A stretch of DNA of 64,000 nt from Halarcobacter sp. (GTDB lineage Bacteria; Campylobacterota; Campylobacteria; Campylobacterales; Arcobacteraceae), in assembly GCA_048571215.1 (NCBI GenBank), contig CP182352.1, positions 1,952,001 to 2,016,000 on the forward strand. Reading direction: 5' to 3'. Shown here piece after piece: positions 23,999-28,672 of the stretch (positions are counted from its first letter, which is position 1; every line of letters starts with the position of its first letter). The translations under genes and the position numbers were made by a program. The notes under the pieces were generated by a model, which ran no database searches, was not told the DNA's origin, and saw only the letters and a program-made list of their open reading frames with translations.

Positions 23999-24021
23999 AT
24001 AGGTTTATTTTAAACCTATCT
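23996..24021. terminator. Hairpin between the methyltransferase and the convergent cassette array
   Basis: agataggttta-ttt-taaacctatct perfect inverted repeat. Confidence 0.55.
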
Positions 24022-24373
24022 TATGAGATTTTTCAAGTTTATTTATAAATATATTTTCATCTTTTTCAATATATTTAAAACTTCCATTTATTTTGTTTGT
24101 ATCTAAGTTATGTGTTTCTATGATTTGATATGCCGAGTCAGGGAGTATTTCTGGAATCCAATCTCTTTAAGGATTTAAATATTCTGTTTCAGAAGCATAT
24201 TTTATTGCTTTTTTTTTCTCCTTTTAAGACAGCTTCATCAAGGTTACGAGCTTTTATGGTAATGATGCGTTCTTCAATTAAATCAATATTTTCTGATAAT
24301 ATTTATCGGTTTTTTTTTGTTTACCCAAAGTTGTTGTTATATATAGTGTTTTAATTGCAAATACTTTTTTTAT
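24005..24373 (-). pseudogene. Decayed cassette remnant(s): frameshifted DUF4288-like fragment joined to an unrelated C-terminal fragment
   Basis: AAGGAG RBS then ATA instead of ATG; KKVFAIKTLY.. then frameshift to ENIDLIEERIITIKARNLDEAVLKGEKKAIKY..YLNP*, then RDWIPEILPDSAYQIIETHNLDTN; family call from memory. Confidence 0.55.
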
Positions 24374-24391
24374 ATTAACTCCTTTGGATGA

Positions 24392-24523
24392 TGATAACGC
24401 CAAGCTAAGTGGCGACTGATACGGAGTGACATTTGTGAAAAAATGGCGAAGCCATTCGCAAATGCAGTGGAGTATCAAGCGTCCGAGTGAGCATAAGCGA
24501 ACGACTTGAGCACATTGTTATGC
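24392..24523 (-). mobile_element. attC site (long, ~132 bp)
   Basis: Minus strand GCATAAC (R'', holds the gene's TAA stop) to GTTATCA (R'); imperfect internal palindrome. Confidence 0.8.
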
Positions 24524-24976
24524 GTTGCACGATTCTAGCCTCGTAGTGATTTCTTCACCCAACCCGATCATTCGATTGTGGTGATTCTCGCACAGCAGCC
24601 AAGCCCGAGACTTGGGGACAAGGTAATACTCAAACCCATAGCACTCGCCAATAACCTTTTGAATTGCAACTGGCGTGGCTTCATAGATTGGATAGAAAGG
24701 CATTTGAACATCTTCAACCACAAACCAGACCACTTCGACCGGATCGGGTACCAACTCCGTGATTCTTTCGAAACCTTTTCCATCCATGAACTCTCTCGAC
24801 GCACTTGGTATTGCGAAAGCCTCCCACCACCAGCGCCTATCACCACCTACGACAAAGTGTGCAACAAGTTCTTTGTAAAGCCGTTCGCCCTCGATGCTTG
24901 GAACCTGCGAAAATTCTCTCTGGGGAATGGATAGTGAACGCAAGGCGTTGGCAATTTCTTCAGTGACGATATCCAT
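24518..24976 (-). CDS. Cassette ORF, DUF6756-like (possible immunity-type protein), GC-rich
   Basis: RRWWWE, FEYYLV, WLLCENHH motifs; ATG 24976 with AAGGAAG RBS; stop within attC. Confidence 0.7.
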   Translation of the reverse strand: MDIVTEEIANALRSLSIPQREFSQVPSIEGERLYKELVAHFVVGGDRRWWWEAFAIPSASREFMDGKGFERITELVPDPVEVVWFVVEDVQMPFYPIYEATPVAIQKVIGECYGFEYYLVPKSRAWLLCENHHNRMIGLGEEITTRLESCNA

Positions 24977-24991: not shown

Positions 24992-25060
24992 GCATAACGT
25001 TTGAGTTGAGAAATATTTGAGCCGCAGGGTCAAATATTTCTCTCCAATGTTTTGTTATAA
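24992..25060 (-). mobile_element. attC site (~69 bp)
   Basis: Minus strand TTATAAC to GTTATGC; central stem gagaaatatttga/tcaaatatttctc around gccgcaggg. Confidence 0.85.
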
Positions 25061-25297: not shown

Positions 25298-25366
25298 TTA
25301 TAACGTTTAAAATGAGCTAATAAATTAGCCGTAGGGTAATTTATTGGCTCCACTGATTTGTTAGAC
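25298..25366 (-). mobile_element. attC site (~69 bp)
   Basis: Minus strand GTCTAAC to GTTATAA; central stem gagctaataaatta/taatttattggctc around gccgtaggg. Confidence 0.85.
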
Positions 25367-26628: not shown

Positions 26629-26714
26629 GTCTAACTAATTATTAGTAATACATTATATATAAATAATATATAAAAACATCTAATATCTTAACATTAAAAA
26701 TGTAAAGATATTAA
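26629..26714 (-). promoter_or_regulatory. Array entry point (GTTAGAC) with candidate attI-like site and promoter
   Basis: GTTAGAC at 26635-26629 complements the SIR2 cassette R''; TATAAT at 26657-26652 on minus; inverted repeat aatatctt-a-acatt/aatgt-a-aagatatt near 26682-26712. Confidence 0.45.
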
Positions 26715-26895
26715 CTCAATTAAGCCTTAAATAGTCTAAATTTAATGAAATACAAAATAATATAAGAAAAAGTAGAATATTTTTTATGTTAAATTATCAA
26801 GGTATATCCTTAATATCTTATCATTTTGTATGACTATTGGGTGAAAATCTTGATAGTTTAACAAAATGATAAATATATTATATTGTGTTATTGTG

Positions 26896-28672
26896 AAACT
26901 ATTATCAATATATTTAGGTGTAAATAAACTTTTGCTGTACCTCTTGGCTTTCTCGACTTTCTTTTCTGAAAAAGAAAGTAGCAAAGAAAACATCCCACAG
27001 GTTTCGAAGGTGAAACTTCCCTCGCTTATTATTCATCCCTTTTGAGTGCCTAAAAACTTGCTAAAATGTGCTCCCAGCACATTTCTTTACGCTTCAAACA
27101 GTTTAGTCACTTGTTTTCAAAAGAGATAAATAAACACTCGGCTTCTCAAATGCGGGAAGCTGGGATAAGGACCTTTGCATTTTTTGTTACCATTTTATTT
27201 AAGCTGGTGTGATACTCAAATAGTATGAGAAAGTTCAAAGCTAGTGTATTTAGTCCAGACTTTGTTGAAGCCGGAAGTTTTCTAATTATTTTCGGAAAAG
27301 ACTGAGGACCGTTCAACTGGATAAAAGGTACTGAATGTACCTTTTAGGAAGGCGTTTCGCAGGTCAGAAGATAATTAGAAAGCTGTAGGGAACTTTAGCT
27401 TCAACAACCGTCTAGTTGCTTTTTGTCTTACTTTTTACAACTAAAAAGTGAGAAAGCGGAGAGCTTTGCTCTACAAGACAATTGCAGACAATAAAAACTA
27501 TTTTCAAAATATTTGAGTAAAGTTAAACTTTTACTGTACGTCTTAACTTATTCCGACTTTCTTTTGTAAAAAAGAAAGTAGCAAAGAAATTATCCCACAG
27601 GTTTCGAAGGCGGAAGCTCCCCTCGCTTATTATTCATCCCTTTTGAGTGCCTAAAAACTTGCTAAAATGTGCTCCCAGCACATTTCTTTACGCTTCAGAC
27701 AGTTTAGTCACTTGTTTTCAAAAGAGATAAATAAACGCTCGGCTTCTCAAATGCGGGAAGGTGGAATAATGACCTTTTCATTTTTTGGTACCATTTTGTT
27801 TGGATTTGTGTAATACTCAAATAGTATGAGAAAGTTCAAGGCTAGGGTATTTTAGTCCAGACTTTGTTGAAGCCGGAAGGTTTTTAATTATTTTCGGAAA
27901 AGCCTGAGAATGTTTGAGGAGAGAAAAGTGACTAGATGTCACTTTTTCGACGAGTTTCGCAAGGCAGAAAATAATTAAGAACCTGTAGGGAACTTTAGCT
28001 TCGACAACGCGTCTGGTGGCTTTTATTTTACTTTTACCACTAAAAGTAAAGAAAGCGAAGAACTTGTTCTTCAAGAGGGTGCATACAATAAAAACTATTT
28101 TCAAAATATTTGAGTGTAGTTAAATTTCTACTGTACGTCTTAACTTATTCCGACTTTCTTTTGTAAAAAAGAAAGTAGCAAAGAAATTATCCCACAGGTT
28201 TCGAAGGTGAAACTACCCTCGCTTATTATTTATTGTTTCTGTTTTGTAAAACTCACATAAAAATATGCTCCCAGCATATTTGTTCTGTTCAAACAGTTAC
28301 AAAACTTCTCCGAAACAATAAATAAACACTCGGCTTCTCAAATGCGGAAAGGTAGGAAATTGACCTTTTGCATTTTTAGTACCATTTTATTTGGATTGGT
28401 GTAATACTCAATATATATTTTGAAAGTTCAAAGCTAAGCTATTTTAGTCCAGACTTTGTTAAAGCCGAGTGCTTTGCTTTTTAAAGCGGAAAAAGTCGAG
28501 AATGTTTGACGAGAGAAAAGTGACTAACTCACTTTTTCGAGGAGTTTCGCAGACTAGCTTTAAAAAGTAAAGTGGGAGGGAACTTTAGCTTCAACAACGC
28601 GTCTGGTTGCTTTTTTGCTTCTTTTTTACAACTAAAAAAGATGAAAGCGAAGAACTTGTTCTTCAAGACAAA
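26896..28672. repeat. Three tandem ~600-bp non-coding units, each an inverted pair of a ~215-nt structured element
   Basis: ctgtac anchors at 26935, 27534, 28131 (periods 599 and 597); shared blocks atcccacaggtttcgaagg, ctcggcttctcaaatgcgg, agtccagactttgtt, agggaactttagcttc. Confidence 0.95.

Follow-up and report, generated by a model that had tools for sequence, protein, structure and literature searches.

What is an array of six large folded repeats, and why does one end of it run into integron cassettes? The window, by which we mean the whole stretch of 64,000 nucleotides analysed here, contains such an array (Table 1). An earlier note had read it as a row of structured non-coding elements and had missed its main feature, which is the fusion to an integron attI site with cassettes. 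We consider it probable that the array belongs to a folded, dispersed repeat which in its A form is joined to attI in the place of intI, and that a single integrase likely loads the cassettes remotely. The anatomy of the module-attI fusion, the attC cassettes and the mosaicism of the copies are well supported. A broader reading is tentative and falls somewhat short of an even chance in our judgement: a protein-free, pan-bacterial single-stranded DNA (ssDNA) element with a triplex knot would have captured attI and made it the core of a network of about 17 mini-integrons, non-autonomous and exchanging attI alleles as well as cassettes among loci and species, and thereby a fifth route to integrase-less cassette clusters (CALINs).

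Table 1. Positions of the repeat modules, the attI site and the cassettes in the window.
Feature	Position	Strand	Remark
Cassette 3 long attC-like site	24392..24523	-	read by eye; weaker fold z -2.7, 2/200 shuffles
Cassette 3 gene, DUF6756	24518..24976	-	family match
Cassette 2 attC	24992..25060	-	fold z -6.3
Cassette 2 ORF, 75 aa	25055..25282	-	ORF
Cassette 1 attC	25298..25366	-	fold z -4.8
Cassette 1 gene, 415 aa	25361..26608	-	weak SIR2_2 match, E 1.4e-4, below Pfam cut-off
attI core	26633..26689	-	crossover G26635 / T26634; relatives' homology stops here
A1 tail	26636..26936	-	homologue of intI-attI intergenic region
Module A1	26937..27166	-	covariance model; rod with TGTTTGA/AGTT internal loop, 3' pseudoknot-triplex (predicted)
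Head-to-head spacer 1	27167..27245	.	between A1 and B1
Module B1	27246..27467	+	covariance model
Tail-to-tail linker 1	27468..27536	.	same DNA as start of A's attI tail
Module A2	27537..27767	-	covariance model
Head-to-head spacer 2	27768..27847	.	between A2 and B2
Module B2	27848..28066	+	covariance model
Tail-to-tail linker 2	28067..28133	.	between B2 and A3
Module A3	28134..28358	-	covariance model
Head-to-head spacer 3	28359..28439	.	promoter-like match 28411-28384 (-)
Module B3	28440..28658	+	covariance model; outer array end, without attI beyond

The array consists of six modules of about 220 nt, with A on the minus and B on the plus strand in alternation and a period of about 600 bp. 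Direct repeats are spaced 590-602 bp apart and the modules score 183-208 bits with a covariance model, which bears out the inverted pairs in ~600-bp units of the earlier note. A and B are, as also claimed there, reverse-complement homologues (identity 62-69%), and identities within types are 80-93% for A and 74-81% for B. A tRNA search of the array found none. Rfam, a check that the note had asked for, gave no family at gathering score in the window, and none of the 14 chance-level matches at E≤10 is credible. Spacer 1 carries a sigma70-like match, TTGAGT-N16-TAAAAT, on the minus strand (27219-27192) and directed into A1. Such sites lie at a fixed position before A modules, and it is this conserved position that makes the argument, not their count (7 observed versus 6.2 in shuffles).

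The modules are structured. Folding is stronger than in any of 200 shuffles for B2 (z -5.9 with DNA and -6.1 with RNA parameters) and for A1 (z -3.9, DNA). Among 115 distinct copies of the module family, 56 of 59 pairs show compensatory change and 89% of cells are paired versus 66% in shuffled data (0/500 shuffles), figures that are overstated because the alignment was fitted to the model and the copies are kin. From 37 copies aligned with MAFFT, RNAalifold retrieved no more than 16 pairs, since the helices of A and B are out of register; the structure was then set from per-sequence pairing. It comprises a long rod interrupted by a conserved internal loop, TGTTTGA/GAGTT, an exchangeable tip (single hairpins in the window modules) and then a 3' unit.

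This 3' unit had been described as a hairpin. The hairpin is present, though not free-standing. In 36 of 37 distinct types, a pyrimidine run 5' of it is a parallel-register match to its purine strand. In distant copies, 75 of 88 hairpins parsed cleanly (13 were dropped), and the parallel-register run averages 6.2 versus 4.1 in shuffles (p 1e-4), under a search pattern that itself prescribes three T in the third strand and a portion of the stem. Where the types are asymmetric, the third strand is the mirror of the arm in 16 and a direct repeat in 0. This pattern is the signature of a predicted pyrimidine-motif triple helix of class IV. The hairpin loop can moreover pair with bases just upstream (4.3 versus 3.4 bp, p 3e-4), which would close an H-type pseudoknot, so that the hairpin belongs to a predicted pseudoknot/triplex.

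Does the module fold as RNA or as DNA? Loops of the form c(GNA)g are stable in DNA and not, so far as is known, in RNA. In 86 distinct distant copies there are 169 such triloops on the folding strand, 47 of them at the tip, against 16 on the other strand and 23 in shuffles; GNRA and cUNCGg loops are not enriched on the folding strand. The signal is weak in Arcobacteraceae copies (29 versus 20). To judge by these loops, the module more likely folds as ssDNA than as RNA.

If the modules were instead transcribed non-coding RNAs, the spacers would hold divergent promoters, the knot-triplex would stabilise the transcript or bind a protein, and the A promoter would serve the cassettes. The fixed TTGAGT-N16-TAAAAT site before A fits such a scheme, and a sister family, TwoAYGGAY, is catalogued as RNA. 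Pyrimidine triplexes can form in RNA, according to the accessible text of PMC4666352. In 110 of 115 copies one strand has the lower energy with RNA parameters and also holds G-U/G-T pairs; however, the strand preference holds with DNA parameters too. The sevenfold enrichment of c(GNA)g without GNRA or cUNCGg also speaks for DNA, and c(GNA)g triloops cap two attC hairpins of the window, attC being a known ssDNA site. No evidence of a transcript came from 13 public runs (shares 0.06-0.10), which gave contigs only, from other organisms, and in which module depth is uninformative on transcription. We therefore regard the RNA reading as unlikely, yet as the strongest rival of the dispersed, attI-fused repeat.

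The earlier note took the array alone. A count over the 3.61-Mb single-contig genome gives 78 module pieces in 17 clusters, with 49 full-length modules (27 A and 22 B). At each of the 37 inverted junctions an A meets a B across one of two fixed gaps, and 21 head-to-head pairs occur. All six window modules resemble a copy elsewhere (91-96%) more than they do their array neighbours, and the 27 A copies represent 22 combinations of four segments, including all 9 combinations of rod and knot. From these two facts we infer growth by exchange among dispersed copies. Local tandem duplication, considered as the origin of the array, is ruled out because the modules are closest to copies elsewhere.

Beyond this genome, near-identical modules are present in Arcobacteraceae records. 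Within the family, 66 of 151 genomes and 12 of 20 genera have the module by the covariance model (a few matches are weak), with 1 to 42 or more matches per genome. None appears in 144 sampled genomes from other families of the phylum; here the model reaches its limit, for copies in Sulfurimonas and other Campylobacterales were detected with a motif pattern. A scan of GTDB with the motif pattern matched at least 123 stretches, 80 of which were fetched; Betaproteobacteria, other Gammaproteobacteria, Bacteroidota, Desulfobacterales, Nitrospirales and others are among the matches listed. Twenty distant loci gave no Rfam match, and blastn with the module gave no match in plasmids and phages. On viral contigs one pattern had 0 matches and a second had 8, three of which fall within ORFs and seem due to chance; among the ORFs listed for the matched contigs there is no evident partner gene. 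As a separate observation, insertions starting TGT interrupt the knot loop of the Betaproteobacterial copies L162 and L220, and the insert in L162 encodes an integrase-core (rve) transposase.

What lies beyond the array? The left boundary drawn in the earlier note falls short: the outward-facing module A1 continues for about 300 bp into attI at 26633-26689, and three attC-bearing cassettes follow. The A1 tail is 71-72% identical to integrase-adjacent regions of other species over 272-297 bp. Throughout the genome, outward A tails converge on a single site ending AG-TT, homologous to the region between the genome's intI and its first cassette. An attI model trained solely on 22 integrase-adjacent sites finds 20 matches in this genome: one at intI, 16 linked to A and three without a module. 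The 16 lie 156-286 bp downstream of A on the same strand; a 17th linked site comes from an earlier attI model. For a random intergenic position the chance of such a link is 0.011, a figure to be read with the shared descent of the copies in mind. An attI follows 16 of 21 outward A modules and 0 of 12 outward B modules. In 19 stretches from five relatives it follows 17 of 18 outward A, a biased rate because these loci were picked by similarity, partly to the tail, and 0 of 8 outward B.

Behind all 17 linked sites, an ORF starts within 11-48 bp, a different gene each time, and the first cassettes all start exactly at the GTT of attI. All 22 local-type attC sites lie within 4.3 kb downstream of an attI and on its strand, 16 of them in module-led arrays and 6 behind two module-less attI. 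The attI cores are conserved, while the surrounding tails are decayed or shortened. In wastewater contigs from other organisms, the window's first cassette has its break at 26635, in one case after an attC arm, and the two short attC sites of the window recur with many different flanks. The cassette boundary at 26635 and the variable first cassettes are indirect signs of a putative IntI-mediated attI x attC recombination at the satellite sites. Genes 3' of A are accessory and co-oriented; they include HNH, TIR-Mrr and Mrr genes, kinases, toxin-antitoxin pairs and orphans.

Two side observations concern the cassettes. Beyond the third attC, window positions 24000-24390 resemble a fourth cassette in decay; the cassette strand holds no intact ORF there. 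Elsewhere on the chromosome, the module-less attI lie at C1:1935852-1940177 and 432681-432729, and two of them head six attC.

Where is the integrase? The sole intact IntI gene (C1:895245-896189; 398 bits versus a cut-off of 265) lies about 1.08 Mb from the array. No intact intI adjoins the array; only a stub is found in the tails. All six type-2 tails keep the intI start and about 12 codons (z 3.7-11), and their several alleles are all joined at one junction. For type-1 tails and linkers, 12 of 30 have z>2, mostly the attI-bearing ones, against at most 1.1 in six controls. Tail-to-tail linker 1 is probably a decayed intI 5' end too, as its identity with type-1 tails suggests; scored alone against the intI 5' end it reaches z 0.5. 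With A fused to attI at 17 chromosomal places, a single distant integrase likely serves many scattered sites.

Relatives show how these sites vary. At orthologous positions (after carA, rplT, guaB and others) they have A-attI with other cargo or nothing, and G017 lacks the site of the window altogether, three of the flanking genes being contiguous there. Among the attI alleles beside integrases of other species, at least five types have a match in the tails, at up to 94%. The A-attI link is seen in eight genomes of the genus and in G148 of another genus, and is absent from the loci sampled in seven other genera. By hand count, 26 of the 66 family genomes with the module have IntI, as do 25 of the other 85. 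Modules without attI also sit at gene gains: G125 has module-gene-module where G111 has a single module, and a toxin-antitoxin pair behind the module in G064 is missing in G113. We also considered whether a module lies downstream of intact intI genes in this family; this is the case in none of 24 integrase loci.

Could the satellites be passive hitchhikers? The fusion would then have arisen once or twice and spread solely by homologous recombination among repeat copies, incoming DNA included, and most satellites would be relics that receive ready-made arrays and not single cassettes. Such exchange would fit the foreign attI alleles, which meet the intI stub at a constant point within it. The G125/G111 difference, the truncated attC and IS remnants at the left end of A, and G012, which has linked attI sites and no IntI match, agree with it as well. 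Relics are harder to reconcile with first cassettes that start exactly at the attI GTT everywhere linked and differ site by site, or with attI cores that stay conserved while the tails around them decay or shorten. We judge hitchhiking rather improbable, slightly more so than the RNA reading, and prefer remote loading by IntI.

The integron loci yielded three further observations. The intI of G017 is split into two frames (L073:8754-9739). The resident integron's first cassette (L051:2750-2930) appears ORF-less, GC-rich and palindromic, and a close copy stands first in the integron of G130. Another rod-like repeat, which resembles ERIC-type elements, often lies between intI and the adjacent core gene, just past the intI stop codon (L056, L073, L125, L140, L142-L144, L147, L152, L153).

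What moves the module itself? A doublet fills a site in some Variovorax-group genomes, and the same site is empty in another; no clear terminal repeats or duplication are seen there, in sites that are only ~75-80% alike. Searches for a reverse transcriptase (RT), for Y1 genes, among neighbouring proteins and on viral contigs found no mobilising enzyme. A Pfam scan of 120 of the 144 neighbour ORFs of distant copies gave no recurring mobility gene and no RT; it did give one IntI-like integrase and two IS-type transposases.

The earlier note had proposed a giant REPIN- or MITE-like ssDNA element, mobilised in trans by an HUH (RAYT/Y1) nuclease. The first half fares better than the second. Inverted doublets, variable copy number, A/C-rich outer tails, the filled and empty Variovorax-group site and the DNA-type loops all suit such an element. 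As for the enzyme, a Y1 gene is present in 34 of 39 module-bearing genomes, and in G063 a RAYT-like gene lies directly behind a module, on one side only. Yet only one of 31 Y1 loci has a module adjacent, the other 30 having none within 1.5 kb; five of the 39 genomes have no Y1 match, and the single Y1 gene of our genome has a different upstream motif. A RAYT-moved giant REPIN is therefore improbable in our view.

Alternatively, IntI or a related tyrosine recombinase may recognise the folded module or its ends and move it. IntI does work on folded ssDNA, as stated in the accessible part of 10.1101/2022.09.11.507474, and in an unclassified MAG (L160:1-1640) a distant module lies between a short IntI-like integrase and a GTT-bounded cassette. 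That integrase lacks the IntI insertion and is 31% identical to our genome's IntI. Against this scheme, the order of GTT and AAC in the module stem is opposite to that of attC, IntI is missing from most module-bearing genomes, and only one of 120 neighbour proteins is of this kind. We consider it very improbable.

Least of all do we expect a template array for a reverse transcriptase, similar to UG27 and its ncRNA. The rod with conserved internal-loop motifs around a variable tip, plus a pseudoknot, does recall UG27, and 20-23-nt inserts confined to modules could be read in the same way; the alternating inverted geometry does not fit. The earlier note had suggested looking for a co-occurring RT gene, and there is none in the complete genome or among the 120 neighbours.

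Several small elements lie in or beside the modules. The inserts just mentioned are of two types with a TGCTTGCA/TGCAAGCA core; they occupy several different positions inside modules, which hold 7 of 7 and 7 of 9 copies (G000 C1, e.g. 963603, 1464577, 1717521, 958066 and 1804526). Seven IS110 copies were found, every one of them in or at a module, three encoding 323 aa (L033:5541-6509, L034:4881-5849, L036:16088-17056) and four 327 aa (L038:8774-9754, L039:3612-4592, L045:5628-6608, L047:10243-11223). One variant occupies a fixed site in A and the other, whose protein is 63% identical, a fixed site in B; the arrangement is seen again in G012 and G016. The non-coding regions upstream of the two variants are unlike in two short stretches, where each variant matches its own target, as retargeted bridge-RNA guides would.

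The left end of solo A coincides with a motif starting TAACACCCC. It has about 27 matches in the genome (G000 C1, e.g. 1711888, 1715064, 549196, 810153 and 3396764), many without a module, and therefore this end is ruled out as an att site of the module: the motif is a separate one. It also occurs next to IS110 ends, a GGGGACAG motif and tRNA genes, and in relatives it is found inside cassette rows.

How could the arrangement have arisen? In the scheme we prefer, the module folds as ssDNA and would spread as doublets through a trans-acting enzyme. The 5' end of intI may have received an A copy, by insertion or by joining, and this copy would later have taken attI to other places on the chromosome. 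Recombination among dispersed copies would build the A-B-A-B arrays and swap helices, attI alleles and cargo, and IntI would act in trans at the satellite attI sites. Several points count against this explanation. Five of 21 outward A lack attI, and three attI lack a module. The A-attI link is limited to a lineage, and the presence of the module and of IntI is uncoupled in the family. No moving enzyme was found, the c(GNA)g signal comes from distant copies, and a promoter-like site points into A.

Why does this matter? The origin of integrase-less cassette clusters is treated as an open question in the accessible text of PMC4889954 and 10.1101/2022.09.11.507474. This genome offers a testable route to CALINs, a repeat fused to attI 17 times and heading 16 of 22 local-type attC, and many genes in the module-led cassette rows are of defence type. 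Our literature search, conducted outside subscription journals and bioRxiv supplements, found no paper on the module-attI fusion.

How do the modules compare with known systems? In BIME-2, two repeat types alternate in inverted orientation with two fixed linkers. The A/B alternation is of this kind, and like REP, BIME-2 and REPIN sequences the modules are targeted by IS110-family elements; they differ in size, about 220 nt with a knot versus about 35 nt for REP hairpins. The inverted doublet is shared with the REPIN/RAYT system, whereas the repeat-flanked RAYT is not (1/31 Y1 loci, one side). UG27 and retron-like RT arrays have a linked reverse transcriptase, unlike the modules.

The closest structural relative is the extended TwoAYGGAY element (RF01731 core), described in the available text of 10.64898/2026.09.22.753630 with a long basal stem, a 3' pseudoknot and divergent doublets. 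The modules share all three, as well as variable copy number. TwoAYGGAY loci of G497 and G428 share base and 3' knot with the modules, and they are matched by an HMM built from distant module copies (E 5e-11 to 1e-7). Since base and knot are common to both, we place the window modules as a sister form on the TwoAYGGAY chassis. The "undescribed large ncRNA" of the earlier note is right in part: there is no Rfam match, but base stem and knot are those of extended TwoAYGGAY as well. The modules fail the defining TwoAYGGAY test, two AYGGAY-loop hairpins on a common stem, and have the TGTTTGA/GAGTT internal loop and one tip hairpin instead. RF01731 gave no match at E≤1 in our genome (cut-off 43 bits); control genomes were equally silent, but it matched in 7 of 151 other genomes. 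No 5' GMTBT(T) short-repeat array, as in extended TwoAYGGAY, is visible in the module spacers. Modules form arrays of up to six from two set partner types; only doublets, by contrast, are enriched in extended TwoAYGGAY, by the available text of 10.64898/2026.09.22.753630; its main text, as available, mentions neither triplex, integron nor RAYT, nor Arcobacter or Campylobacter. RF02278, a toxic sRNA of Betaproteobacteria, scored at best 18 bits in our genome, outside modules (cut-off 50), and was absent from 20 distant loci.

A large unannotated repeat family of several phyla is thereby placed on this chassis, which gains a predicted triplex with three-way covariation and a loop signature pointing to DNA. 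Both make the RNA-or-DNA question and the search for the moving enzyme directly testable. A class IV intrastrand triplex has the Hoogsteen, pyrimidine and purine strands in this order on one strand (PMC4666352). The modules show the same strand order, here embedded, unlike there, in a pseudoknot that ends a large covarying element. The accessible text of PMC4666352 studies a purine-motif repeat of E. coli and nowhere mentions Arcobacter or Burkholderia.

On the integron side, the module-led arrays resemble a sedentary chromosomal integron (intI-Pc-attI) in their homologous attI with GTT crossover and in the attC cassettes downstream on the attI strand. They resemble CALINs and SALINs in having no integrase nearby. 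With two clear attC sites and a third read by eye, the window array falls under the definition of a CALIN (at least two attC, no integrase nearby). Among the four CALIN origins listed in the accessible text of PMC4889954 there is no attI-multiplying repeat, and the accessible part of 10.1101/2022.09.11.507474 reports that attI on its own does not become inserted into genomes. Unlike a CALIN, each module-led array has its own attI and intI stub and is headed by a structured repeat, and there are 17 of them on one chromosome.
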